From Candidatus Nanopusillus sp. (GTDB lineage Archaea; Nanobdellota; Nanobdellia; Nanobdellales; Nanobdellaceae), in assembly GCA_049414405.1 (NCBI GenBank), contig JBMSAQ010000013.1, forward strand, positions 1 through 20,243: 20,243 nt of DNA, given 5' to 3'. Every line of letters starts with the position of its first letter. The first letter of the stretch is position 1. Of the stretch, positions 192 to 19,766 are shown piece by piece. A program made the position numbers and the translations under genes. Below the pieces are notes generated by a model. That model saw only the letters and a list, made by a program, of their open reading frames with translations. It searched no databases and was not told the origin of the DNA.

Positions 192-827
192 TTAATAACT
201 TTCCCATATAGCATCTTTTATCCTTTGTATAATTTTATCTTTCGCCGATGCGACCCTATAATAATTTATCATATGTTTAAATGATGTATATCCCATAAAA
301 ACAACCAATTCCTCAGGCAATAACCCCCTTGATAACATATAATCAATAAATGCATATCTTAAGGAATGTGGGTTAATTCCTAAATTTTCTTTAATGAATG
401 TGTAATAATTCTTTTTATTTATTTTATCTAAAATATCGGAATATTTTTTTAATTCATCATAATATTCAAATAATAACGGAGGTATAATAACTAATCTTTC
501 CATTTTTGACTTTCCGGCTATAATTTTCAATACTTTTTCTTTTTTCTTTAAAAATAATTGTAAACTTTTTATTGCCTCAGTAGATCTTAACCCGTTTGTT
601 AATTGTAAATATGCTATAGAATAATAAAGGAATCTACGAATATCTAATCTTTTACCTTTACCCGTTTGTAACTTTTTATATATAATTTCTAAATTTGTTT
701 TAATTTCCTTTAATGCATCATTAAAAGATATCTCACGGTACCAATGTTTTACCTCGCCACCTTGTTCTTTAATCCTTTTTGCGAATTCATTGAAATATTT
801 AATAAATGCCTTTTCATCATCTTCCAT
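192..827 (-). CDS. tyrosine recombinase / integrase (compact, 211 aa)
   Basis: Box I-like LQLTNGLRSTEAIKSL (catalytic Arg81). Box II-like HSLRYAFIDYMLSRGLLPEELVVFMGYTSFKHMINYYRV (HxxR at 154-157, candidate nucleophile Tyr189/190). The ORF is closed upstream by an in-frame stop at 852-854, so the short length is real. Confidence 0.8.
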   Translation of the reverse strand: MEDDEKAFIKYFNEFAKRIKEQGGEVKHWYREISFNDALKEIKTNLEIIYKKLQTGKGKRLDIRRFLYYSIAYLQLTNGLRSTEAIKSLQLFLKKKEKVLKIIAGKSKMERLVIIPPLLFEYYDELKKYSDILDKINKKNYYTFIKENLGINPHSLRYAFIDYMLSRGLLPEELVVFMGYTSFKHMINYYRVASAKDKIIQRIKDAIWESY

Positions 828-3207: not shown

Positions 3208-3396
3208 ATGACTAAAATAACGATTAAAATTTCGTATGATAATTACATAGAATATAAACAAATACTCGCAAAAATAGAAGGATTAGCAAAAACTTTAAAT
3301 ATAAATCATTATAGGTTAAGATATCTAATATTAAAAGAATTTGCAAATAATGAAAAATGGCAAAATGAATTAATAGAAAAATTAAAGAAAATATGA
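3208..3396 (+). CDS. hypothetical small soluble protein (62 aa); possible ribbon-helix-helix-like DNA binder
   Basis: The N-terminal beta-like KITIKIS is followed by two predicted helices, which is an RHH-like pattern but not diagnostic. It is the only non-membrane protein inside the membrane-protein island. Confidence 0.45.
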   Translation: MTKITIKISYDNYIEYKQILAKIEGLAKTLNINHYRLRYLILKEFANNEKWQNELIEKLKKI

Positions 3397-3500
3397 ATAT
3401 ATCCCCTATTGATTTATTAGTAATAGCTTTTATAATTAGTGCAATTGTTTTAGCTTTAGAGGATGAAATAGCTGAAAATTGCAAAGATAAAAAACAATGA
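3393..3500 (+). CDS. hypothetical micro-protein (35 aa, single TM)
   Basis: Found by hand. The ATG at 3393 overlaps the preceding TGA as ATGA. Translation is MNISPIDLLVIAFIISAIVLALEDEIAENCKDKKQ, with a stop at 3498-3500. Confidence 0.3.
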   Translation: MNISPIDLLVIAFIISAIVLALEDEIAENCKDKKQ

Positions 3501-3522
3501 AGAATAACTAAGATAAAGAAGA

Positions 3523-8363: not shown

Positions 8364-8432
8364 CCAAATATATTAATATATTAATATATTTTTATAGCAA
8401 ATCTAATATACTGCTAACAATAATATAATATT
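8364..8432 (+). promoter_or_regulatory. promoter region of the structural-type module
   Basis: A 69-nt A/T-only intergenic region with tandem atattaat units and TATA-like elements (tttttatag at 8389-8397, ctaatatac at 8403-8411). The latter is about 26 nt upstream of the ATG at 8433. Confidence 0.4.
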
Positions 8433-8840
8433 ATGAACTGGTGGGCAGCAATGTTCATAGATTTGTTGATCGTAATATTAGTAACAGGTATGATAGCAAC
8501 ACTAGCAATAAATATATTGGGTGTATTTGGTACAGCATTATTACCAATGTCAGTAAGGCAATTAGGAAATGGTTTTGATCAATTAGGGCAATTAAACGCC
8601 ACTTATGGAAGTGACCCAGCTGTGGCAGCACTTGTTAATTCATTAAGAAATAATATGGTTACTATAGTAAATGATCAGGTACAGGGAACAACTCAAGCTG
8701 TTACCGGATTAAATCAAGCAATTCAATTCTACATAGGATTAGTACCTGTAGTAGTAATATTAGTAATTGCTGGAGCATTCATTGGAATTGTATTACAATT
8801 CGCTGGTGGAATGTATAGGCAAGTAGCTGTGACAGTCTAA
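8433..8840 (+). CDS. candidate major capsid/structural protein (135 aa) with two hydrophobic helices flanking a polar Gly/Gln/Asn/Thr core
   Basis: The N-terminal hydrophobic segment is FIDLLIVILVTGMIATLAINILGVFGTALLP. The C-terminal segment is FYIGLVPVVVILVIAGAFIGIVLQFAGG. This architecture and the LVP-containing second helix resemble SSV1 VP1-type capsid proteins. The gene has visibly higher GC and different codon choice, its own promoter, and T-tracts downstream. Confidence 0.5.
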   Translation: MNWWAAMFIDLLIVILVTGMIATLAINILGVFGTALLPMSVRQLGNGFDQLGQLNATYGSDPAVAALVNSLRNNMVTIVNDQVQGTTQAVTGLNQAIQFYIGLVPVVVILVIAGAFIGIVLQFAGGMYRQVAVTV

Positions 8841-8848
8841 GGCTAAAA

Positions 8849-8866
8849 TTTTCCTTAATTTTTTCT
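8849..8866 (+). terminator. putative oligo-T attenuator/terminator after the capsid-like gene
   Basis: T-tracts tttt (8849-8852) and tttttt (8859-8864) lie between the stop at 8840 and the next ATG at 8868. Archaeal termination uses oligo-T signals. Confidence 0.3.
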
Positions 8867-8867
8867 T

Positions 8868-9365
8868 ATGTCTAAATATGTATACTTTAAGAATATTTAT
8901 TTTGGAAAAGATTCTTTAGCCAAAATTTTCTATGATAAAGATAAAATAGAAGATTCTTTAGATTATAATGCCGTAGTTGTTTCATTCTTAATAGATGCTG
9001 CAGATATTTTAAATCAAAATGCCATATTATCACGTATTGCATATTATGATGGTACTAACATAAGACCTATTTTAATGGAATGGAATAAAGAAACAATTGC
9101 CGGACGTACTAAAATTTTAATGGATTTAGGTAATATTTATGATAAAAATACAAAAGATTTATTAAAACACTTTTTAAATCAACTAAATGCTGATGATAAT
9201 TATGTAAAATCTTTAGCTTTATATTTAGCTGTTATTATTGCATCTAAAAAAGGTTTGGGTCTACATCATCAACAAATCTACGATAGGATAAATTATCTTA
9301 AATCAATTGGAATAGTTGAATCGGTTGAAAAGGTAAAAAAATTATACGAATTATATAAAAGATGA
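8868..9365 (+). CDS. hypothetical soluble protein (165 aa)
   Basis: An ORF with an ATGA overlap to the 1001-aa gene. I recognise no motifs. Confidence 0.6.
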   Translation: MSKYVYFKNIYFGKDSLAKIFYDKDKIEDSLDYNAVVVSFLIDAADILNQNAILSRIAYYDGTNIRPILMEWNKETIAGRTKILMDLGNIYDKNTKDLLKHFLNQLNADDNYVKSLALYLAVIIASKKGLGLHHQQIYDRINYLKSIGIVESVEKVKKLYELYKR

Positions 9366-12300
9366 GCAATACATTATTATCAAATCAACAGGATAATGTC
9401 CAAAGAATACAATTAATGGATACATCTTCAGCCGTAAATTCTGCTTTAAGTCAATATGGTTATACTTTATCATATGGTGATACTGAAAGACTTAAAAGTT
9501 TACAACCCGGCCAAACTACGACTGTATATGCAACCGGTAATAGATACGGAGCTATATTAGAAGTAACTTATCATAATGATGGTACTTATACTATTAGATC
9601 TACAACCCCATTAAATGTAAGTGGCCAATGGATAGATATAAATCAAACCGTAAGGTCTCCTACAGTTACAGTAGGTTATTCTAGTGGTAATATTCAATAT
9701 ATTGCTACTACAGGATATTCTACTACAGGGAACGTATATTTAAGAGAATCGGGTACTCCAGGTAGTACTACTTTAGCTACATATAATGTTAATGTGAGCG
9801 TACCTATTACACATCAAATAACGGATACAGAAATAAGATTTAGTCCGGGCACCCCTCAAGTAACTACTACTTTACAATCTATAAATATACCTTCTCCAAC
9901 TCAAGAACAATTACAAAATAGAGCAATAACTCAATCACAAATAAACAATAATTTACTTTTTAGTTATTCATCTTTACCTGAAAATAATTTGTGGTTTGGT
10001 TATTCACGCATGCCATCAACAAATACCCAAACTACTAATGTTAATGCTAATAATCAAACAAATTTATTTAATAATCCAATAATTAATACAATAACATCTT
10101 TGCCCGTAATTAGAAACGTATATAATGTAGGTAGAAATGTTTATCATACAATGTCATCTATGGATTGGGGAGATGTTTGGAAAAGGCTTAATCAACCAGA
10201 ATTACGTACGCCATCAGGAGAAAGGGCTAATGTTATTTCTTTTACAATGCCACCAATTGGTCCTGCGAGTGCTACAGGAATTACAAATATATTTAGAGCC
10301 GGTGGAAATACTTTAAGATCTACATCTTTAAGTAGTCCTACGGTAAGGGAATTAGCCAAAGAATACGCTATAAATACTGCCGGATTTACGGCATTAAGTT
10401 TAGGGATTAATGAAGCTCATAGTAGGTTAACAACCGGTGAAGGTTTAACTGCCGAACAAGCAAAGCGAATAATTGGTGAATCCGTTGCTTTTGCGATACC
10501 ATTTACTACATTTGCTAAAGGTTTTTCATTAGCATCTCATCCGGTATTAAGTACTTTTGTAAAAGAACAAACATCACCCACAAAAGCAATATTAGCAAAA
10601 TCTTTATATGATGTGGGTGGTGGTTTTGTATCAGGTACTGGTGCGAGTTTTGTAAGTCAAGGATTTAGTAAAGCAATGGGCTGGAGAGAAGATATTAACC
10701 CATATGAAGCTTTAGCAATGGGTTCATTTACTGGGGGTACTACTGCAGCAATTAGAGGTTTTCAAGTATTACATGCAGCAAAAACTGGAAACTATGGCGC
10801 ATTTGCCACTAGAATAATTCCAGAAGAAATTAAAGATGTGAGTTTAACCCCTATTTCTACTGTGGTTTCTAAAGATGGATCTATAATAACATATTATGCC
10901 GGTAAAGCCATAGGACAGCCACAAATTGGTCAAAAAGTATTAACACAAAAAGATATACCAAATATAAAACCAATTGAATATCAATTTTTAGCAATGGAAA
11001 GATTAGAACCAATTTTGCCTAAAACAGAACCCATAGGAAATGCATTTATGACTACAATGGGTTATAGAGGTGAATTTATAGCACAAGCTGGTGTAAAAAG
11101 AACAATTGGAAAAACAGAAGGTGAACTTATGGGTTTATTTGTACCCACAGAAAAAATAAGTCCTAGAGACTATGAATTATGGGTCCGAGCTAATTTTAAA
11201 GATTTAATTAAAAAACATCCCGAATTTATTCAATCAAAAGACGTACCTAAAGAAGGTTTACAACTTTCAAAACAAATGTTAGAGGGTAAACCCATAAAAG
11301 AAATAGAAAACCCAAATGTTAAAACCCTTAATATATATTATCCATTATCTGAATTACAAACTAGAAATGTAGATTTTAGTAAAAATATAGCCGGTTATAT
11401 TGTGTTTAGGTCTAGAGGGGGTATTAACTTACCTAAAGGAGAACATTATGAATATGTAAAAGAAGGGGTGGGTTTAGCTTATTATGTTGGGGGGGATAAA
11501 AATCAATTAGCTCAAATAGCCACAACATGGGGAATTATGCGTGATCAATATAAAAAAGGATGGTTTGGTACCCATCAATATGTTTCCGTAGGATCCCCAG
11601 AAAGAGGTTTTAATGTATTTGGTTATGGTAAAGCTGTGGATCCAGTAGGGGTGGAATTAACCTTAACTAAAACCATTGAAAGAACAACCAATATAAAAGG
11701 TGTGCCATTAAAAAACAAACAAATAGAGCAAATAGCAGAACAACAATTAAAACAATTATTAGCATATTCCTCTGAGAGAGTAATACCACCTTATTATAAC
11801 CCAAAGGCACCCCCAGCTTTCGGTATACCATCATTAAATATCATTAATGTTAATCAACAATTATTACCAAATTTGAATAACATTATAAGACCTGAATTTA
11901 ATATGGAAAAATTAAAGGAAAGGGTTACCCAAACCATGCCAAAATTAGATGTAGTCCAAACAACGCAAAATGTTAGGCAAAATATAATTTTACCATTTCA
12001 AGGATTAAGATCTTTACAATTACAAGGATTGCAAACCCAACAACGGATAGGTCAACAAAGAATAATAGCACGTGATCTAATAGTAACGTATGATATTTAT
12101 AGAAGTACAATACCAAAACCAATGGTTACTATGGATGTTAAAACTATTAGAATAAACCCTCCACCACCAATAGAACCAACATTCATACCAATAAGACCTA
12201 GAATAGCCCCCATACCACCATCATCAAGGCCTCCTTTCATACCACCATTCTTACCACCAATGGTACCACGCATAGGTCCATCTCAACCAGGTCCACCAAT

Positions 12301-12367
12301 ACCATTAGGCAGAGCTAAAAAGGTTGAATTAGATGTGGTTTATACATTTAATAGGTTATGGGGATAA
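9362..12367 (+). CDS. large structural-type protein (1001 aa): Ser/Thr-rich N-terminal region, Gly/Ala-rich amphipathic core, Gln-rich then Pro-rich C-terminus
   Basis: A long uninterrupted ORF with higher GC. The central segment is GFTALSLGINE...GGGFVSGTGASFVSQGFSKAMGW...GSFTGGTTAAIRGF. The C-terminal segment is PPPPIEPTFIPIRPRIAPIPPSSRPPFIPPFLPPMVPRIGPSQPGPPIPLG. No signal peptide is seen. Confidence 0.75.
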   Translation: MSNTLLSNQQDNVQRIQLMDTSSAVNSALSQYGYTLSYGDTERLKSLQPGQTTTVYATGNRYGAILEVTYHNDGTYTIRSTTPLNVSGQWIDINQTVRSPTVTVGYSSGNIQYIATTGYSTTGNVYLRESGTPGSTTLATYNVNVSVPITHQITDTEIRFSPGTPQVTTTLQSINIPSPTQEQLQNRAITQSQINNNLLFSYSSLPENNLWFGYSRMPSTNTQTTNVNANNQTNLFNNPIINTITSLPVIRNVYNVGRNVYHTMSSMDWGDVWKRLNQPELRTPSGERANVISFTMPPIGPASATGITNIFRAGGNTLRSTSLSSPTVRELAKEYAINTAGFTALSLGINEAHSRLTTGEGLTAEQAKRIIGESVAFAIPFTTFAKGFSLASHPVLSTFVKEQTSPTKAILAKSLYDVGGGFVSGTGASFVSQGFSKAMGWREDINPYEALAMGSFTGGTTAAIRGFQVLHAAKTGNYGAFATRIIPEEIKDVSLTPISTVVSKDGSIITYYAGKAIGQPQIGQKVLTQKDIPNIKPIEYQFLAMERLEPILPKTEPIGNAFMTTMGYRGEFIAQAGVKRTIGKTEGELMGLFVPTEKISPRDYELWVRANFKDLIKKHPEFIQSKDVPKEGLQLSKQMLEGKPIKEIENPNVKTLNIYYPLSELQTRNVDFSKNIAGYIVFRSRGGINLPKGEHYEYVKEGVGLAYYVGGDKNQLAQIATTWGIMRDQYKKGWFGTHQYVSVGSPERGFNVFGYGKAVDPVGVELTLTKTIERTTNIKGVPLKNKQIEQIAEQQLKQLLAYSSERVIPPYYNPKAPPAFGIPSLNIINVNQQLLPNLNNIIRPEFNMEKLKERVTQTMPKLDVVQTTQNVRQNIILPFQGLRSLQLQGLQTQQRIGQQRIIARDLIVTYDIYRSTIPKPMVTMDVKTIRINPPPPIEPTFIPIRPRIAPIPPSSRPPFIPPFLPPMVPRIGPSQPGPPIPLGRAKKVELDVVYTFNRLWG

Positions 12368-12379
12368 TAATATAATAGG

Positions 12380-12790
12380 ATGAGAGCTATAGGGTCATTA
12401 ATATTAAAAGTAACCGTAGTTATATTATTAGTAATATTTATAGGTATTTTAGCGATGGTCTTATCTACAGTTTTTAATACAACATCAATTTTAGCTGGGG
12501 TCGGGTATACGGCGCAATATAGTGCATATGGTATTTCTTATAAAAATTGTTTAAGTAATGCTAATTTTTACGGATATAATGCATCCGTATGTGATAATTT
12601 GCTTAATGTAACAAATAATACGGCAAACACTTTATTATGGACGGGAAATTATGCAGGAACTTTTTCAAATCCTATGTTATGGGCTATAATATTTATTATT
12701 ATAACTGCGGGGTTATATGTTACGTCAATACAGGCAGTACAATTTGGGCAAAAGATAACCGTAGTAAAAACTAGAAGAAAAAGAAAATGA
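12380..12790 (+). CDS. membrane protein (136 aa) with N- and C-terminal hydrophobic helices, a glycosylation-sequon-bearing core and a basic tail; candidate minor structural protein
   Basis: The helices are LILKVTVVILLVIFIGILAMVLSTVF and MLWAIIFIIITAGLYVTSI. The core carries sequons (NAS, NVT, NNT) and the tail is KTRRKRK. It has an ATGA overlap with the 1131-aa gene. Confidence 0.6.
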   Translation: MRAIGSLILKVTVVILLVIFIGILAMVLSTVFNTTSILAGVGYTAQYSAYGISYKNCLSNANFYGYNASVCDNLLNVTNNTANTLLWTGNYAGTFSNPMLWAIIFIIITAGLYVTSIQAVQFGQKITVVKTRRKRK

Positions 12791-15700
12791 TCAAAAAATT
12801 CCTTAAATTATTTGGAATATTTCTTTTAATATTCTTTTCTTATAATGTTTATTCTTTAAACGGATGGCAATATTATAGGCAAATTACAATAAATAACACC
12901 CAAAACCCAAATAATTTAATTGATTATCAGATATTGGTGACTTTAGACACACAATCTTTGATATCACAGGGTAAAATGAAATCGGATTGTGGCGATATAA
13001 GATTCACAGATTCTGATAGAACCACATTATTAAATTATTGGGTAGAATCGGGTACGTGTAACTCACAAAATACTTTTATTTGGGTAAAAGTCCCACTTAT
13101 ACCGGGAAATTCTAATAAAACTATATATTTATGGTATGGAAATCCAAACGCTATAAGTTTAAGTAACGGAGATTTAGTTTTTGAATTCTTTGATGATTTT
13201 GATGGAAATACTTTAAACACATCTAAATGGACCGTGAATGGTTATGATGGGTTTTGGGGGGTTTTTTATAGTGTTTCTAATTCAATGCTTACCATATGGT
13301 CGGATAATAGATGGCGAATTTTAAGAATGAATAGGAATTTTGGACCGAATGATACAATAGCCATCGAAGTAAAATTTAGAAAAACTGCAGCAAGTGCGTG
13401 GCATGTTAATTATTTAGTACAACATAATGGTGCAAATCATAATAGATTAGGACTTAGTGATGAACATTACCCAGGAGATGATATGGGAATACAATTGGTT
13501 GTTAATAATAATTGGTATTATCCGAAAAATTTTGGTTCATTTTCTAATAATGTATGGTATATTTCAAGAATTATAAAAAAAGATAGTACTACTTTATATT
13601 TAGATGTTTTAACTTCAAATAGAGGTTTTATTAATTCATATGAGACTACACAATCGGCATGGTCATCCGTAATATGGACATGGGTTACTTGGCAATTTCA
13701 TAATACTAATGTTACGTATGATTGGGTTTTTGTTAGAAAATATACAAACCCGGAACCAATTATTATTTTAGGATCTGAACATGTGCCTTTAACTTCAACA
13801 ATTTCAGTAAATACATTAACAAATTTCCAATTTAATGTATCTATATATAACCTAATTTCCGAATATGTAAATTACACGGTTTATTTAAATGGTTTAATAT
13901 TAACAACCAATAATATTTCAATAAATGCGTTTCAAACTTTAACAACCCCTCATGAATTTCCTTATTTATTAAATCAATCGGGTACTTATAATTTAACTGT
14001 AATAGCTTATGGGCAAACCTCTAGAGTCACATCTGTTTCAATTGCTATATTTAATATTCAACTAGATCAATTAAATGTAACTTTAGAACCCTATTATACT
14101 TATAATAACATAAACTATACAAATCTTTATAATTCAAACTTAAGGATAACTTATTATTGTATGAGACCTAATAATACTTTAATAATTTATAATAATATAA
14201 CAAATAGAACATTGCAAATTAATTTATCATGTAATTACATACAAACAATAAATAATTTAAGAGTTAATCTTACCCCAATTTTACAAAATAATACTTTAAA
14301 CCATATTAATGGATCATTATTATATGGCAATCAATCATTTAGAAATATAAGCTTTATACCATTATGGAATACATTAAATATAACTTTAACTACAAACATT
14401 CCAGCATTTTCTATATATACATCACCATTAAGTTTAAATTATTCTATAAATGTAAGAGATGTTTTACCAAACGTTGTATGTAATATTACATTATATGATA
14501 ATAATACAATTGTGCAAACACATCAAACAACATTAACAAATGCGTCATCACCAATATATTCATGGACTATATCACAAGCACCAATACATAACCTTAGGTG
14601 GCATATTTATTGTTATAATCCAGTAAATTTAACATATATCATCGATCAAAGGAATGGTACTTTTTACTATAATAGCTTTGATTTTAGAATGGAAGATACT
14701 GGAAATGTACCATCAAATATATCTTATTCATTATCATTAATGTGTAACAATGGTACTACTATTTATTCAAATGCAAATATGACTACTTATACAATATATG
14801 CATGGACTAATGATCAATGTAACTTTATATTAGTATCGCAAAATATTCAGGGTATTACTTATACTATGGGTTATAGTACTAATTTATTATCAAGATATTC
14901 ACATCAATGGCCAATATGTTTAATAAATCCACAATTATTGTATTATAGTAATTTAATAGTAGGTAATCAACCATATCAAGATACATTAATAGCAGTATTA
15001 AATCCACAAACAGGATGTTATTTATTAGGATCTTATCTATATTTATTATCATCTAATGTTTATTACGCACCAATATCGGTAAGAACCGGGGCATTATATT
15101 CAATAAGAGTAAATAATACATTTTTAGCGACGGTTCAAGGGCAGCAACAGCAAGCAATTTCTTTAGATTCTTTAATTAGTAGAGTAATAGCATCAAATAA
15201 TCAAACAATAAATCTTATAGTAGGTTATCCTGTAGTTAATTATACAAACGAAAGTGGAGTACCTAAATTAACAATTATTGCGCCAGCAAATATTTCATCG
15301 GCAATAGTAACTATATACCAAAACAACCAAATATATACCAATTATACTTTTGAATCTATAGGTTTGAATATATTAGATATATATTTAAGAGATTTGCCAT
15401 CTAATTATACATTTAGTTCTACAAACTATGTAGTAGTTAAATTAACATATACCAATGGACTTACCCATACTGTTACCTATCCATTTGATTATCTTGAAAG
15501 AATTGCATTACCGGCATTTTTAGTATATTTCTTATCAATAATACTATTATATACATGGATTAGGACTTTTTCTTATTATCAAAAGTTAATTTTCGCAGGC
15601 TTTGGTTTAGTATTAATATTGGCTTTATTAACATCATTTATAATAGATTCTATCGCACCTTTATTCTTAACTGCAGGTATATTTTTATTCTTTATAGCAG

Positions 15701-16182
15701 ATGTTATAAATAAAACATACTTACCACAATTAACACAAGATCATCCTTTATTTAAACTAATCTATATGGCATTTAAATTCTTTATGGTATTATCTTTTGT
15801 AGGTACCTTTTTAGTATTTTTATTGGGACCTCAGGGATTATATCATATAGGAATTCCCGAAATAGATAAATATATGAATGACATGAAAAGAATAATGGAC
15901 TCTTCAAGCTCTACTATAACAGAAATGCAACGTAATATGTTTTTTGTACCATTCGGTATAGTAATATTAGCAGCCAGTATAATTCAAGCTATATGGTTAG
16001 GAATACAAATAATGGGGGTATTTATATCATATATGATATCGCCATTATCCGTAGTATTAGGACCATTTGCGAATATATTGGCGATGGTAATTCAAGGAAT
16101 ATTAGTATACGGATCAATAATAGTAATAGTAGTGTATATGATAACAATGGTTTTCGCATTGGCCGGAAGAAATCTATTTTAA
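12787..16182 (+). CDS. secreted/anchored adhesin-like glycoprotein (1131 aa): signal peptide, DUF2341-like domain, ConA/LamG-like lectin-type domain, sequon-dense beta-rich region, polytopic C-terminal membrane anchor
   Basis: The signal-like N-terminus is MIKKFLKLFGIFLLIFFSYNVYS. The DUF2341 signature is GWQYYRQITINN...YQILVTLDT...CGDIRFTD...LNYWVE...IWVKVP...IYLWYGNP. The following FDDFDGNTLNTSKWTV is typical of ConA-like/LamG folds. I counted roughly 40 N-x-S/T sequons by hand. About 6-8 TM helices run from about nt 15500 to the end. Confidence 0.8.
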   Translation: MIKKFLKLFGIFLLIFFSYNVYSLNGWQYYRQITINNTQNPNNLIDYQILVTLDTQSLISQGKMKSDCGDIRFTDSDRTTLLNYWVESGTCNSQNTFIWVKVPLIPGNSNKTIYLWYGNPNAISLSNGDLVFEFFDDFDGNTLNTSKWTVNGYDGFWGVFYSVSNSMLTIWSDNRWRILRMNRNFGPNDTIAIEVKFRKTAASAWHVNYLVQHNGANHNRLGLSDEHYPGDDMGIQLVVNNNWYYPKNFGSFSNNVWYISRIIKKDSTTLYLDVLTSNRGFINSYETTQSAWSSVIWTWVTWQFHNTNVTYDWVFVRKYTNPEPIIILGSEHVPLTSTISVNTLTNFQFNVSIYNLISEYVNYTVYLNGLILTTNNISINAFQTLTTPHEFPYLLNQSGTYNLTVIAYGQTSRVTSVSIAIFNIQLDQLNVTLEPYYTYNNINYTNLYNSNLRITYYCMRPNNTLIIYNNITNRTLQINLSCNYIQTINNLRVNLTPILQNNTLNHINGSLLYGNQSFRNISFIPLWNTLNITLTTNIPAFSIYTSPLSLNYSINVRDVLPNVVCNITLYDNNTIVQTHQTTLTNASSPIYSWTISQAPIHNLRWHIYCYNPVNLTYIIDQRNGTFYYNSFDFRMEDTGNVPSNISYSLSLMCNNGTTIYSNANMTTYTIYAWTNDQCNFILVSQNIQGITYTMGYSTNLLSRYSHQWPICLINPQLLYYSNLIVGNQPYQDTLIAVLNPQTGCYLLGSYLYLLSSNVYYAPISVRTGALYSIRVNNTFLATVQGQQQQAISLDSLISRVIASNNQTINLIVGYPVVNYTNESGVPKLTIIAPANISSAIVTIYQNNQIYTNYTFESIGLNILDIYLRDLPSNYTFSSTNYVVVKLTYTNGLTHTVTYPFDYLERIALPAFLVYFLSIILLYTWIRTFSYYQKLIFAGFGLVLILALLTSFIIDSIAPLFLTAGIFLFFIADVINKTYLPQLTQDHPLFKLIYMAFKFFMVLSFVGTFLVFLLGPQGLYHIGIPEIDKYMNDMKRIMDSSSSTITEMQRNMFFVPFGIVILAASIIQAIWLGIQIMGVFISYMISPLSVVLGPFANILAMVIQGILVYGSIIVIVVYMITMVFALAGRNLF

Positions 16183-16188
16183 CCTAAA

Positions 16189-16521
16189 ATGGATCAAATA
16201 AACTATATAAATAATACAATTCAAATGTCCGAAATTGTTAACAAAACATTACAATTTATAACATTTAAAGATATTTATTCATACATATTATTAAATATTC
16301 TTTTAGTCGCTTTAGTGATTGCATTAGAAAGCCAAAGGGTTGAAAATATCGTTATATTATTATTAGAAATAGCTATAATACAATGGTTTTTTGTATTTGC
16401 ATTATTAGGATTATTAAGTATAGGTTATATAGATTTTCCACCAACAGTAATAATACAATATTTTATGGCACCGGCAGTAATATTATTAGTATTAGCTTTA
16501 GTATTATCTAAAGTAACATAG
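16189..16521 (+). CDS. hypothetical membrane protein (110 aa, ~3 TM)
   Basis: Hydrophobic helices. It starts 6 nt after the previous stop, and its stop directly abuts the next ATG (tagATG). Confidence 0.55.
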   Translation: MDQINYINNTIQMSEIVNKTLQFITFKDIYSYILLNILLVALVIALESQRVENIVILLLEIAIIQWFFVFALLGLLSIGYIDFPPTVIIQYFMAPAVILLVLALVLSKVT

Positions 16522-17868
16522 ATGGTATATATAAAGGATATATCAGATATAAGACGTTTAAAATCCGACGACATATTTGAGTTGTTTTCTAAAGGGGAAT
16601 TATATAAAAAAGTATTAGATAAAAAATGGTCAGATAAAAGCAACATTATTAAAAAGTTTCAAAACCCGTTTGATTTTTTAGAAGGTACTGCAGAAACAAT
16701 TAAACAAAGTGTAACATCATCAATTGATGAAGATTATTGGTTATTGGTTTTAGGTGAACCCGGTACGGGTAAATCTACTTTATCCGTAGCATTGTATAAA
16801 CATATTATGTATAAGTTAGGTTATACTTTAGATCAAATTAAAGATCATTTATATATAGATGTTTGTTATTTACCATATGATTATTTAGGCAGGATTAATT
16901 TACATGGTGATGAAATTGAAGAAAAAGGCAAAATATTCCCACATCCTATAATTTTAGATGAGGCTCATAATATGTTTGATTTATTTGCTGAGGGTTCTAC
17001 AAATGTGGCGAGAAAAATATTACAAAGAATATTTGAAATAAGAGAATATAGATTAGTCCATATAGTAAATACACAAATACCTCGCCATATTGCTAAAAGG
17101 GCTTTAGAAAGATTTCATTCATTAATAATTTTATGGAAAGAACCCATATATTTTGGTGATGAAAAAACAAAAGCTTTAGAAGAAACATATCTAAGCTATA
17201 TGCAAAATATTTTAAAAATAAAACCACGGACGGATGAAGGTATTGGGTATTTTTTATGGGGGGTACTTTATGGCGAAAGTTTTACACATGATGTTTTAGG
17301 ATGGATTATAAAGCACGGAGTTAGAATTAGAGAATTAAGAAAAATTCTTATAAGATTTGATCCTAAATTTATTTTCCCTATGACATTAATATTGCATGAG
17401 GTTTCAGATTTAAGACCTATCTATTTTAATATAAAACTATATAATAATGGAATTAAGAAATTATATGATGAATTTGGAATAAAAGGATCTAAAAAAACAA
17501 TATTTTTAAAAGCTTTAACCGAATTAGGTAAATATTTTAATAAGATGGATCCAAATAAAAGAAATGAAAAAGGATATATTGTATTAGATGAACCCATACT
17601 TATAGAAATAGATAGTAAAACAGAATATAAAGTATTAAAAAAAATAGGCCGTGTAAAATTTAATATAGACCTTGAAAAGATCTCTAAAAAAACTAAAAAG
17701 AAAGAAAAAACAAAGACTAAAAAATTAATAGAAACATCCTCTTATTCTGATGAATCTTACGTTAATATTTATAGTATTAATCCTAAAATTTATAATTTCC
17801 TAAAAAGCAATTATATTACATTACAAAAAAGATATAAATTACATGAAGCTATAGGATTTAAGCTATGA
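16522..17868 (+). CDS. P-loop NTPase (448 aa), candidate DNA packaging/transfer or replication ATPase
   Basis: Walker A is LGEPGTGKST (nt 16753 onward). Walker B is PIILDEAH (DEAH at nt 16957-16968). A Lys-rich KKTKKKEKTKTKK segment lies near the C-terminus. Confidence 0.75.
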   Translation: MVYIKDISDIRRLKSDDIFELFSKGELYKKVLDKKWSDKSNIIKKFQNPFDFLEGTAETIKQSVTSSIDEDYWLLVLGEPGTGKSTLSVALYKHIMYKLGYTLDQIKDHLYIDVCYLPYDYLGRINLHGDEIEEKGKIFPHPIILDEAHNMFDLFAEGSTNVARKILQRIFEIREYRLVHIVNTQIPRHIAKRALERFHSLIILWKEPIYFGDEKTKALEETYLSYMQNILKIKPRTDEGIGYFLWGVLYGESFTHDVLGWIIKHGVRIRELRKILIRFDPKFIFPMTLILHEVSDLRPIYFNIKLYNNGIKKLYDEFGIKGSKKTIFLKALTELGKYFNKMDPNKRNEKGYIVLDEPILIEIDSKTEYKVLKKIGRVKFNIDLEKISKKTKKKEKTKTKKLIETSSYSDESYVNIYSINPKIYNFLKSNYITLQKRYKLHEAIGFKL

Positions 17869-18352
17869 TGATTTTCTTTTTCTTTTTCATTATATAGATT
17901 GTATTTATTATATTTATAACGAATATAATAAGAGAACCCACTATATAACCTAAAATATTACCTATGGTTTTTGAAATTATTAAGAATATTACCCAAAATA
18001 TTATAGATGTAATTGATAAATAGATTAACATATGAATAAGAGGGGCTTTTTTGTATAAGATGTCAACTAATTTAAATTGTAATTTTAGTTTTTCTAATCC
18101 TGTTGATAATACCGATTCTTCAGTTAATTTATTTATATTATATATTTTGTTAATTATAGGATATGTTACTTTCCAAAATGCAAAATCTATAAAACTATTT
18201 ACTGGAACTTTAGCGCCATATACATTTATAGTTAATATTGGTCTTTTAGTCAATTTACTAATATAGCTAAATACCGGTAAGAATAATAGAGCACTTACTA
18301 CAATACCTATAATAAAAGAAATTATAAAATTATGATCCATGTTTCCACCCAA
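17858..18352 (-). CDS. hypothetical membrane protein (164 aa, ~3-4 TM)
   Basis: Hydrophobic helices. It overlaps the upstream AAA+ gene, and the start may instead be the Met at 18340. Its 3' end overlaps the convergent ATPase gene by 11 nt. Confidence 0.55.
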   Translation of the reverse strand: MGGNMDHNFIISFIIGIVVSALLFLPVFSYISKLTKRPILTINVYGAKVPVNSFIDFAFWKVTYPIINKIYNINKLTEESVLSTGLEKLKLQFKLVDILYKKAPLIHMLIYLSITSIIFWVIFLIISKTIGNILGYIVGSLIIFVINIINTIYIMKKKKKIIIA

Positions 18353-19766
18353 AAGTACCTTTTACCAAATCTTTAGCCACATTTTCAATTATGCCAGCAT
18401 TTAAATCTGTTTCAGGATCATCTACAATAGTATTTAATTCTAAACCTCTTAACTTTTTAGCTATCATAATAGCAAATGTTCTAGACCTGCCTTTTAAATC
18501 TGAAAGTTTTGATGAGTTATACTTTGCTTTAAATATTTCTTGCTTTATTTGGTTAATCATTGCAATAAAATAAGGCGCACTCATTGTTTTATCTATTATA
18601 TATTTATTTACATCAAATTCTTCATCTATTATACTTATAATTGCTAATCTATCTACAAATGCACTAATTGATCCATGATTTAACCCCCTCTTAGCTAATT
18701 CCCCCTTTAACCATTCTCTCGCATCTTTTATAAAGTCTATTAAATTTTCATGACTAATTTTATCAACATTACCTAAAAATATAAATCCCACATCCCTTTT
18801 AATTACATCTCTCTCAGATTTAGATGAAGCACTTCCTTTTTCTATGTGCCATACCCCTTGTGCTAATCCACTTTCTGAATATGATATAAATTCATCAAAT
18901 TTATCTTTTTCCAAATTTTTATCAAATGCATCTATTACAATATAGTCATTATGAAATATGGCTCCCAATATTCCAGAACGTGCGTCCATAATTAATCTTG
19001 TTCTTGAAGGAAATTTTCCAAATATTGCAATTTTCATAATATTAATTAACTTTACATAAAATGTTGTTTTACCTGTGCCGGGTTTTGTAAATTGTAAAGT
19101 ATGGGTATACTTTGTAAAGTCATCATTTAATTTTATGGGAAATAGTGATAAAACCCTAGGTAAATATATTTTTCTTAATAATATATATTCATCTTTATTC
19201 ATATCAAAGGGGTTTATTCCTATGGCACATAAGAACAAATCAAACCAATTAACTTTATATTTTTCTTTAATTTCTAATAATTCTTTAGTCCTTATTTCAA
19301 CCTTTGCTAAATCCATATAAGATTTTACATAGAATTTATTACGCTTTTTATCTTTTGCAATAATATTTAAATATAATAATCTTGCTTTCATGACCTCACT
19401 TAATATATCGATTAAATCTTTATCGTTTATATCGGGATTATTTCTTTTTAAAGTATCTTCATTAAAAACAACATTAACACCATTTGATAGTTTTGCTATA
19501 AATTCTAAGGGAGATCTTACCTTTATCTCAGTAACCCGTCCAATAAATTCTATAGAACCTTTTCTTAATAATTTTAATATAAATTCTTTTTCCTTTTCGG
19601 GTTTGCTTAAATATATAATATCAACAATATTTAATTTCCAATCATGTATAAATGGCAAATATGGGCTAATACCTTCATATTTTTCTTCAGAAAGATCTAT
19701 ATCTTCAGGTATTGTATTCATAAAAATTGGTTCATTAAAAATTTCTTTTAAGTCATAATCAACCAT
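18330..19766 (-). CDS. AAA+ ATPase (478 aa) with MCM/MoxR/Mg-chelatase-like (helix-2-insert clade-like) motifs; candidate replicative or remodelling ATPase
   Basis: Walker A is FTKPGTGKTT (nt 19062-19085). Walker B is YIVIDAFDKN (compare MCM IDEFDK). The sensor-1-like motif is GFIFLGN. The Arg-finger-like motif is SAFVDRLAIISI (compare SRFDL / ALLDRF). The ~220-aa N-terminal domain is unrecognised. Confidence 0.65.
   Translation of the reverse strand: MVDYDLKEIFNEPIFMNTIPEDIDLSEEKYEGISPYLPFIHDWKLNIVDIIYLSKPEKEKEFILKLLRKGSIEFIGRVTEIKVRSPLEFIAKLSNGVNVVFNEDTLKRNNPDINDKDLIDILSEVMKARLLYLNIIAKDKKRNKFYVKSYMDLAKVEIRTKELLEIKEKYKVNWFDLFLCAIGINPFDMNKDEYILLRKIYLPRVLSLFPIKLNDDFTKYTHTLQFTKPGTGKTTFYVKLINIMKIAIFGKFPSRTRLIMDARSGILGAIFHNDYIVIDAFDKNLEKDKFDEFISYSESGLAQGVWHIEKGSASSKSERDVIKRDVGFIFLGNVDKISHENLIDFIKDAREWLKGELAKRGLNHGSISAFVDRLAIISIIDEEFDVNKYIIDKTMSAPYFIAMINQIKQEIFKAKYNSSKLSDLKGRSRTFAIMIAKKLRGLELNTIVDDPETDLNAGIIENVAKDLVKGTFGWKHGS

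Follow-up and report, generated by a model that had tools for sequence, protein, structure and literature searches.

Spindle-shaped archaeal viruses are united by a signature module in which a hydrophobic α-helical major capsid protein (MCP) is paired with an AAA+ ATPase, and several of them carry two paralogous MCPs (10.1101/2025.02.15.638363). The capsid protein VP1 of SSV19 folds into two 30-residue helices joined by a 9-residue outward loop (PMC9351363), and the conserved core of the Thermococcales spindle viruses includes two highly variable lectin-domain proteins with transmembrane (TM) helices (PMC12934983). Here we analyse a 20,243-base stretch of DNA from Candidatus Nanopusillus sp. 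(the window, which is the entire contig JBMSAQ010000013.1, with 28 open reading frames, ORFs), an element also present in hot-spring assemblies from ENA and JGI, and centre on its gene for a 135-amino-acid (aa) protein at positions 8433..8840 of the plus strand (NCBI locus ACO2ON_01680, 'hypothetical protein'). An earlier reading made from the letters alone (the sequence-only reading) had proposed this protein as an MCP of the SSV1 VP1 type. The Nanoarchaeota, which would be the hosts, live in obligate symbiosis with other archaea; to our knowledge those of hot springs have one described virus, known as sequence only and without an established virion type.

Our leading reading, held tentatively and stopping just short of probable, is that a ~20-kb virus of Nanopusillus/Nanobsidianus, which also encodes an integrase, has the 135-aa product as an abundant structural (coat) protein of hairpin type, with a function like that of a spindle-virus MCP and a sequence family of its own. 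The idea of a structural protein stands on the hairpin architecture, on a conserved promoter and terminator, and on a module that contains a lectin-domain membrane protein and ends in a spindle-type ATPase; the proposed kinship to VP1 was not detected. The protein is thus a plausible functional analogue of the spindle-virus MCP and the best candidate for the element's main coat protein, while its presence, abundance, orientation and glycosylation in a virion, and the shape of that virion, are points that we infer.

A predicted helical hairpin

Kyte–Doolittle hydropathy (19-residue windows) places hydrophobic segments at about residues 1–41 and 92–128 of the protein, joined by a polar Gly/Gln/Asn/Thr/Ala-rich linker with a single NAT sequon, and the AlphaFold2 (AF2) model, built with 10 homologues, consists of two long helices at residues 3–58 and 62–134 (pLDDT 72, pTM 0.43). 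Hydropathy and model together bear out the sequence-only description of an ATG-initiated ORF with two hydrophobic stretches and a polar linker, and give two hydrophobic α-helices in a hairpin. The first hydrophobic helix half (about residues 8–39; 8454..8549, plus strand, as are all parts of this gene) ends in a conserved GVFGTALLPMSVQQLG motif whose P38 is invariant. A Q/N/T/S/G/A-rich region follows (about residues 40–98; 8550..8726), predicted to make up the outer half of a hairpin of two antiparallel helices that turns at residues 59–61; the N-glycosylation sequon N55-A-T (residues 55–57; 8595..8603) adjoins the predicted tip. The second hydrophobic half (about residues 99–124; 8727..8804) starts at a near-invariant LVP motif (P105) and is followed by a conserved Arg (YRQV). 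The hydrophobic halves are thereby set apart by ~60 polar, predicted-helical residues. A type IV pilin-like (class III) signal peptide was considered and rejected on reading the N-terminus by eye, as the basic residue and Gly/Ala cleavage motif are missing.

In layout the protein recalls VP1 and VP3 of the fuselloviruses: all are small and have two hydrophobic helices with an N-x-T sequon between them, prolines near the end of helix 1 and at the start of helix 2, and a C-terminus that is short and polar or basic. The dimensions differ, in that the helices of VP1 span 30 residues whereas those predicted here span 56 and 73 and have a polar outer half. SSV1 VP1 is cut from a 144-aa precursor to a mature 73 aa, whereas the hairpin protein shows no sign of processing, and VP1 follows VP4 in SSV1, whereas the hairpin gene heads its module. 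The earlier statement that topology and size class match those of SSV1 VP1 therefore holds for the two-helix hairpin and fails for the size of the mature protein and for the loop, which has 9 residues in SSV19 against ~60 polar residues here. His1 VP21 (PF25665) is likewise a hydrophobic two-helix protein with one sequon, encoded by a lone gene with long spacers on both sides that heads a structural block, in a genome that carries an ATPase of phrog_5484, but it measures 73 aa rather than 135 aa. PAV1 ORF121, which we take, as is generally done, to be the PAV1 MCP, has 121 aa, two hydrophobic segments and a single sequon, and like the hairpin protein lacks a Pfam or PHROG family of its own.

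The gene has the highest GC content of the 28 ORFs (0.360, against 0.264 for the whole window), as had been noticed; the accompanying claim of a different codon choice proved weak. The excess sits in codon positions 1 and 2 (0.496 and 0.363) because the protein is rich in G, A, V, Q and T (together 50% of residues) and poor in charge (K+E+D+R, 5%), and GC at the third position (GC3, 0.222) is no more than slightly elevated and falls within the range of the other ORFs (0.10–0.26).

A conserved structural-type block ending in an ATPase

The hairpin gene heads a conserved structural-type block on the plus strand that ends in an AAA+ ATPase, and this position supports a structural role. Immediately 3′ of it, always, lies the gene for a conserved 165-aa soluble helical protein (8868..9365), followed by that for a 1001-aa mosaic S/T/N/Q-rich protein with a Pro-rich C-terminus, a candidate virion-surface or host-recognition protein (9362..12367). 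Next come a second TM-loop-TM protein of 136 aa, with four sequons, two Cys and the basic C-terminus KTRRKRK, which is a rival MCP candidate (12380..12790); a candidate adhesin of 1131 aa with an N-terminal DUF2341 domain (ConA/LamG-like; PF10102, E = 6e-31) and a multi-TM C-terminus (12787..16182); a 110-aa membrane protein (16189..16521); and a 448-aa AAA+-like P-loop ATPase, apparently related to those of spindle-shaped viruses (16522..17868). The 136-aa gene has an upstream spacer of only 12 nt and its stop overlaps the start of the 1131-aa gene, an arrangement by which the two may be translationally coupled.

The order 110-[hairpin, 135–140]-165-large-TM-loop-TM (120–136)-large DUF2341-membrane (110–126)-ATPase is kept in three diverged lineages: the window (20.2 kb), the locus L016 (21.0 kb; hairpin 64% identical) and the loci L032/L034 (23.6 kb; hairpin 35%, ATPase 53%). 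A small hydrophobic α-helical protein occupies the same syntenic position in all three. The 1131-aa protein is 66–76% identical in L032 and only 33% identical, over its N-terminus, in L016, a pattern opposite to that of the hairpin gene; since the mosaicism of the large proteins runs opposite to the small genes, the elements appear to recombine and to exchange genes of host-recognition type, and both large proteins behave, judged by their sequences, like host-recognition proteins.

The lengths of these large proteins vary across the window, L016 and L032 (1001, 1646 and 1124 aa for the first; 1131, 716 and 1513 aa for the second), the mosaic stretches being 9362–12367 and 12787–16182 in the window, 10948–18455 in L016 and 1306–9619 in L032, at identities of 33–76%. 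The C-terminus of the 1001-aa protein (12097–12367) is a strongly proline-rich tail, PPPPIEPTFIPIRPRIAPIPPSSRPPFIPPFLPPMVPRIGPSQPGPPIPLG, and in locus L008 the homologue of its gene is split into ORFs of 753 and 243 aa.

The PAV1/TPV1-type module is laid out in parallel, as a long co-directional block that starts with ORF121 in PAV1, with two large TM-anchored lectin-domain proteins, each followed by a ~140-aa membrane protein, and with a P-loop ATPase (PAV1 map compared: ORF121, ORF676, ORF140, ORF678, ORF138). PAV1 differs in that neither the hairpin, nor the large proteins (ORF676, ORF678), nor the ATPase beyond Walker A shows sequence similarity, and in that a lectin-type domain is found here in the 1131-aa protein only (DUF2341, not Laminin_G_3), none being detected in the 1001-aa protein. 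BLASTP and phmmer comparisons of all window ORFs with all PAV1, SSV1 and His1 ORFs likewise gave only Walker-A-level or chance matches. The 165-aa protein was tried as the equivalent of SSV1 C124, the nozzle protein of fuselloviruses, and rejected (0.2% probability).

The ATPase provides a suggestive tie to spindle-shaped viruses. SSV1 B251 and His1 ORF16 are members of phrog_5484 (E = 5e-101 and 3e-62), which the window protein matches weakly (E = 0.019, residues 74–184) and which all 16 sampled members of its family match (best E = 1.8e-5); the sole other PHROG matched by all 16 is 2630, of unknown function. Aligned profile to profile with hhalign, the family reaches 54% probability with B251 (122 columns) and 64% with His1 ORF16 (131 columns), the usual threshold being 90%; with PAV1 ORF375 the Walker A motif alone aligns, and a profile search of PDB retrieved nothing beyond P-loops. 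The best named match of its AF2 model (pLDDT 84, pTM 0.85) in the viral structure library BFVD is ORF286 of Acidianus two-tailed virus (E = 1.8e-5), with a Nitrosopumilus spindle-shaped virus protein further down, TM-scores being low (0.24–0.45) and generic AAA+ proteins close behind. Together these matches are suggestive of kinship to the spindle-shaped-virus ATPases, and the element resembles the fuselloviruses in encoding both an ATPase of phrog_5484 (a weak match here) and an integrase.

Across 185,579 species representatives, homologues of the ATPase occur solely in genomes of Nanopusillus and Nanobsidianus stetteri, which fixes the host group. On the N. stetteri chromosome (L030/L039, 9466–11826) an AsnC regulator is followed by an ATPase homologue (47% identical) and then by a 124-aa TM/polar/TM protein on the opposite strand. 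The latter is 35% identical to a 113-aa ORF in locus L009 (75–1861), which lies there between an AsnC gene and P0014, a distant member of the hairpin family. As a distant hairpin relative adjoins the chromosomal ATPase copy, the hairpin and ATPase co-occur as a pair, and the chromosomal pair is possibly a remnant or a domesticated module.

A private promoter region and T tract

The 69-nt spacer 5′ of the hairpin gene had been called the longest dedicated promoter region. Among spacers that separate two firmly called co-directional genes it is the longest; spacers of 126 nt (3397–3522), 165 nt (828–992, flanked by the genes of integrase and methyltransferase, co-directional on the minus strand) and 169 nt (1986–2154, divergent) exceed it. 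Its nucleotide identity across relatives (81–87%) is higher than that of the coding sequence (75–80%). Within it lies a perfect 26-nt palindrome (13+13, AAATATATTAATA|TATTAATATATTT; 8366..8391) that is unique in the window and that none of 100 shuffles matched, even with up to three mismatches. The palindrome is identical in L016 and is replaced at the same position by others in more distant lineages, with 14-nt arms at 93% in L025, 19-nt arms at 84% in L007 and 11–12-nt arms in L032. Such replacement in place is what one would expect if an operator evolved together with a dimeric regulator encoded by the element, and this suggests 8366–8391 as a putative operator of that kind. A TATA-like box, TTTTTATA (8389..8396, plus strand), overlaps the palindrome's 3′ arm ~40 nt 5′ of the ATG; a T-rich TATA-like element stands 37–45 nt 5′ of the ATG in all hairpin clades and is a putative archaeal promoter.

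Downstream, the stop context TAAGGC leads into a pyrimidine-rich spacer of 27 nt (GGCTAAAATTTTCCTTAATTTTTTCTT; 8841..8867, plus strand; 70% pyrimidine) with runs of T4 and T6. No other co-directional spacer of the window has a run of six or more T, such runs occurring on the window's plus strand at 1.28 per kb, and a run of at least five T 3′ of the hairpin stop is invariant in all nine aligned relatives, down to 35% protein identity. Oligo-T tracts are a known archaeal termination signal, and this one is a putative terminator or attenuator. Within the long plus-strand block, no gene but that of the hairpin combines a conserved upstream region of its own, bearing a palindrome, with a conserved T tract behind it. 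The earlier proposal of a dedicated promoter region and attenuating T tracts is thus supported by sequence conservation on both sides of the gene, and more strongly than the letters alone could tell, both being putative as regards function. A bacterial promoter and terminator scanner, which is not applicable to archaea, found no promoter-like enrichment in the window and three terminator-like matches against 0.6 expected, all inside coding sequence and none in 8841–8867.

A hot-spring protein family under purifying selection

The hairpin family comprises ~25 distinct homologues, all from hot-spring metagenomes or assemblies or from Nanopusillus metagenome-assembled genomes (MAGs). A word-indexed search of 5.8 billion proteins gave 10 relatives at 65–100% identity, a profile search of 1.84 billion cluster representatives gave five more, down to ~20%, and a metagenome scan gave 18 loci. 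The locus L009 has two adjacent hairpin genes. JGI samples 3300025374 and 3300001337 are among those in which contigs of these elements occur. Ratios of nonsynonymous to synonymous substitution (dN/dS) are 0.13–0.37 in most pairs and 0.52 in the near-identical (97%) pair of the window and L012, the same as or below those of neighbouring genes (0.12–0.56); the ORF is a real gene under purifying selection and no chance ORF. Invariant or near-invariant positions include P38, G47, L51, Y58, Q82, F99 and P105. An N-x-S/T sequon flanks the predicted turn, at residue 55 or 60, in 21 of 21 distinct family members and has shifted between these positions in some lineages; being kept yet moved, it points to selection for an exposed glycan over local sequence, which suggests that the tip is a putative glycosylation site.

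One clear relative is filed as viral: the 140-aa A0A5P9U6D6 of BFVD (Foldseek E = 1.1e-6, 38% identity), which superposes on the 135-aa model with a TM-score of 0.86 over 133 columns and equals in length the syntenic hairpin homologue of L032/L034. 'Nanoarchaeotal virus 1' exists as an NCBI taxonomy entry (taxid 2661841). The accession series of A0A5P9U6D6 fits a deposit of 2019–2020, and we presume, without confirmation, that it stems from this virus, whose genome is reportedly 35.6 kb long and so above the 20–24 kb of the contigs here. The 140-aa syntenic homologue of L032 is also annotated in the same Nanopusillus MAG, on a contig reported as 113 kb (with the loci ACO2ON_01535 and ACO2ON_01540), which hints at an integrated sister element. 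No member of the family was found among GTDB representative genomes, and tblastn of the 135-aa protein and a related ATPase found no relative among 50,697 phage and archaeal-virus records.

A proposed coat protein and its geometry

Were the 135-aa product (about 14 kDa) the coat protein, its two hydrophobic halves, N-terminal in helix 1 and C-terminal in helix 2, would pack side by side with those of neighbouring subunits into a hydrophobic, possibly lipid-containing shell, with both termini and the conserved Arg facing inwards. The polar helix halves would then project outwards as an antiparallel stalk ~30 residues long with an N-glycan at its tip. Because its TATA-like box overlaps the palindromic operator, the gene's own promoter could be switched by an element-encoded dimeric regulator; the oligo-T terminator right after the stop would yield a short, abundant monocistronic messenger RNA, and limited read-through would supply the minor structural genes downstream (the 165-aa protein, the two large variable surface proteins, the small membrane proteins that accompany them, and the AAA+ ATPase of morphogenesis).

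What is newly defined is a family of 20–24-kb elements of Nanopusillus/Nanobsidianus with a spindle-virus-type ATPase, mosaic lectin-like adhesins and a strongly conserved, putatively separately transcribed hairpin protein. It offers a concrete target for finding particles and for learning how a virus reaches a cell that is itself attached to another cell. If the hairpin is the coat protein, the range of the module of hydrophobic hairpin and AAA+ ATPase takes in hyperthermophilic DPANN archaea, where the geometry of the subunit is markedly different. A bolder version, which we consider unlikely, would make the protein a capsid class unrelated to VP1, a hairpin of TM half, coiled-coil stalk and TM half that forms a virion wall of a kind not seen before, with a hydrophobic inner layer beneath a glycosylated helical brush, the pair of hairpin and ATPase having been captured by the Nanobsidianus chromosome beside an AsnC regulator for some use of the cell, such as vesicle formation or cell–cell contact.

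Several observations weigh against a coat-protein role of the spindle type. Pfam holds both spindle MCP families, PF06281 (VP1_VP3; gathering score 25 bits, reached by the control SSV1 VP1 with 69.5 bits) and PF25665 (His1_capsid), and the 135-aa protein matches neither, nor any other Pfam family, at E ≤ 1. Against a VP1/VP3 alignment of 23 sequences, drawn from 113 relatives of SSV1 VP1, two hairpin profiles (A2, A4) reached hhalign probabilities of 1.7% and 2.7% over 15–27 columns at the start of helix 2 only; the unrelated neighbouring 136-aa protein scored 2.9%. Among controls, His1 VP21 reached 20% over 53 columns covering both helices, and PAV1 ORF121 0.1%. The hairpin family scored 0.1–0.2% against His1 VP21, and no hhalign comparison with SSV1 VP1, VP3, His1 VP21, PAV1 ORF121 or the VP1/VP3 alignment was significant. 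The SSV1 VP1-type kinship of the sequence-only reading has therefore failed in every profile comparison with the SSV1, His1 and PAV1 capsid proteins: kinship to VP1/VP3 or His1_capsid is not detected, and the controls show that such tests have low power for proteins of this kind. More broadly, searches of Pfam, PHROGs and PDB link the protein to no proven capsid protein. Weak matches to sarcoglycan, tape-measure and MCP-signalling proteins were set aside as due to helical Q/N/A/T-rich composition, and Foldseek matches of the AF2 model in PDB were generic helical hairpins (Vipp1/PspA, nucleoporin coiled coils, ESCRT-III; E ≥ 1) and uninformative.

Other points on this side concern structure, expression, conservation and context. 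VP1, whose exposed loop between the helices is short (9–20 residues), has nothing that corresponds to the polar helical insert of ~60 residues. High expression, as had been proposed, accords with the architecture of the transcription unit only, since GC3 carries no clear sign of expression-linked codon bias. Within its module the hairpin gene ranks among those least conserved, at 35–42% identity where the 165-aa, ATPase and large proteins have 46–76%: in L008 it is 42% identical, against 73% for the 165-aa and 70% for the 1001-aa protein, and in L032 35%, against 40–76% for the other module proteins. The family was not found in IMG/VR viral contigs, and the window and the 23.6-kb relative both lack terminal repeats that would point to circular complete genomes. 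Nor need the virion be a spindle. In pleolipoviruses, too, a small multi-TM protein (VP3) is followed by a large anchored spike (VP4) and a P-loop NTPase (VP8); as pleomorphic archaeal viruses share this module of small membrane protein, spike and NTPase, shape cannot be inferred from it. The element differs in that no pleolipovirus protein is among its PHROG or BFVD matches and its ATPase matches the spindle-virus PHROG.

Alternative explanations

The alternative that survives best, though we still think it unlikely, keeps the 135-aa protein in the virion and denies it the role of main shell builder: the 136-aa protein, or both together as with VP1 and VP3, would form the shell, and the hairpin would be a part of the envelope, matrix or spike stalk, its coiled coil projecting from the surface. 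This also counts against our leading reading, for the 136-aa protein is equally VP1-like, with a 60-residue loop that is aromatic and rich in sequons (four in the protein) and a basic tail suited to face DNA. Its VP1/VP3 score is like that of the hairpin family, it is equally conserved (63% in L016, 40% in L032), paralogous MCP pairs are known in several spindle viruses (10.1101/2025.02.15.638363), and L009 has its two neighbouring hairpin genes. The 136-aa gene, however, has no promoter spacer of its own, and its overlap with the adhesin start suggests low production coupled 1:1 with a minor protein. In PAV1 the ORF140 gene likewise lies between the two lectin genes, and the conserved promoter and terminator pair is found at the 135-aa gene only.

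A non-structural membrane protein acting on the host, in egress, superinfection exclusion or the remodelling of host contact, would be rather less expected than a minor virion component; the promoter would then reflect timing and not abundance. An operator-type promoter would suit a switch gene no less than a late gene, the hairpin sequence turns over faster than its neighbours, as is common in proteins in conflict with the host, and no capsid family has been linked to it; among known hairpin MCPs a TM/coiled-coil/TM layout is unusual (PMC9351363). Set against these are the place of the gene, which in all lineages opens the conserved structural-type block and immediately precedes the large surface proteins, the strict retention of the tip sequon, and a depletion of charge (5%) with enrichment in small residues or Gln/Thr that matches the block's other putative surface proteins.

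Less probable still, and nested within our leading reading, is that the protein is a true but very distant member of a VP1/VP3–His1 superfamily, with a polar hairpin inserted in the ancestral loop. A BLASTP match to the SSV1 VP1 precursor covers 38 residues at 39% identity (E = 0.033, database of ~150 proteins), GLVPV..., with which helix 2 begins, was paired in every hhalign run with LVPLFY of VP1/VP3 or LLPLL of His1, and LLPxxVxQ ends helix 1 in both the hairpin and the VP1/VP3 families. The VP1 family phrog_11172 was touched by 2 of 13 hairpin members (E = 1.8), and accepted relatives are themselves barely detectable there (His1 VP21, E = 0.029; PAV1 ORF121, none). These matches are short, hydrophobic and compositionally biased, however; the probabilities of 1.7–2.7% are no better than that of the unrelated 136-aa neighbour, there is no Pfam match, and the LLPxxVxQ, LVP and 38-residue likenesses to VP1 are no stronger than those for any hydrophobic hairpin.

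It is improbable that the element is an integrative plasmid or cellular island and the 135-aa product an ordinary membrane protein, either of the Nanoarchaeota themselves or of a surface apparatus encoded by a plasmid. In favour of this, the contig is binned in a Nanopusillus MAG, the family is missing from IMG/VR, homologues of the ATPase and of a hairpin protein sit among cellular genes of the N. stetteri chromosome, and Pfam and PHROG scans, which covered 20 of the 28 ORFs including every one longer than 175 aa, revealed no recognisable capsid, portal or terminase. Against it, the same scans revealed no conjugation ATPases (VirB4/VirD4-type), three lineages share a 20–24-kb gene set with mosaic adhesin-like genes, the element's ATPase is closest to virus families, and a clear hairpin relative is filed as viral in BFVD.

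Other features of the element

Outside the block, the minus strand encodes a 211-aa tyrosine recombinase, the integrase (192..827; phrog_9208, E = 2e-16; PF00589, E = 1.7e-4, below cut-off), a Dam-type methyltransferase (993–1985) and a 478-aa BrxL/Lon-like ATPase (18330–19766; PF13337, E = 1.8e-8; phrog_6542, 'protease', E = 3.6e-23). The last has a 28%-identical homologue in the related element L027 and may be the element's replication or maintenance ATPase. The remaining scanned ORFs have no family, many being small membrane proteins, and scans for Rfam families and transfer RNAs gave no match in the window. A Holliday-junction resolvase (Hjc, PF01870), which the window lacks, is encoded on the minus strand of the sister elements L007 (1232–1561) and L032 (16045–16374).

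Two non-coding regions carry repeats: a 32-nt direct repeat (850–881 and 936–967) with an internal inverted repeat, AAAGTCTATA...TATAGACTTT, lies downstream of the integrase gene, in 828–992, and a 24-nt inverted repeat (2090–2113 and 2115–2138) lies inside the divergent region 1986–2154. Both are candidate origin, regulatory or attachment sequences. Two 62-aa proteins (2155–2343 and 3208–3396), without family assignment, are among the best conserved of the element (75–81% identical in L016 and 63–76% in the distant L007) and are candidate small DNA-binding regulators.

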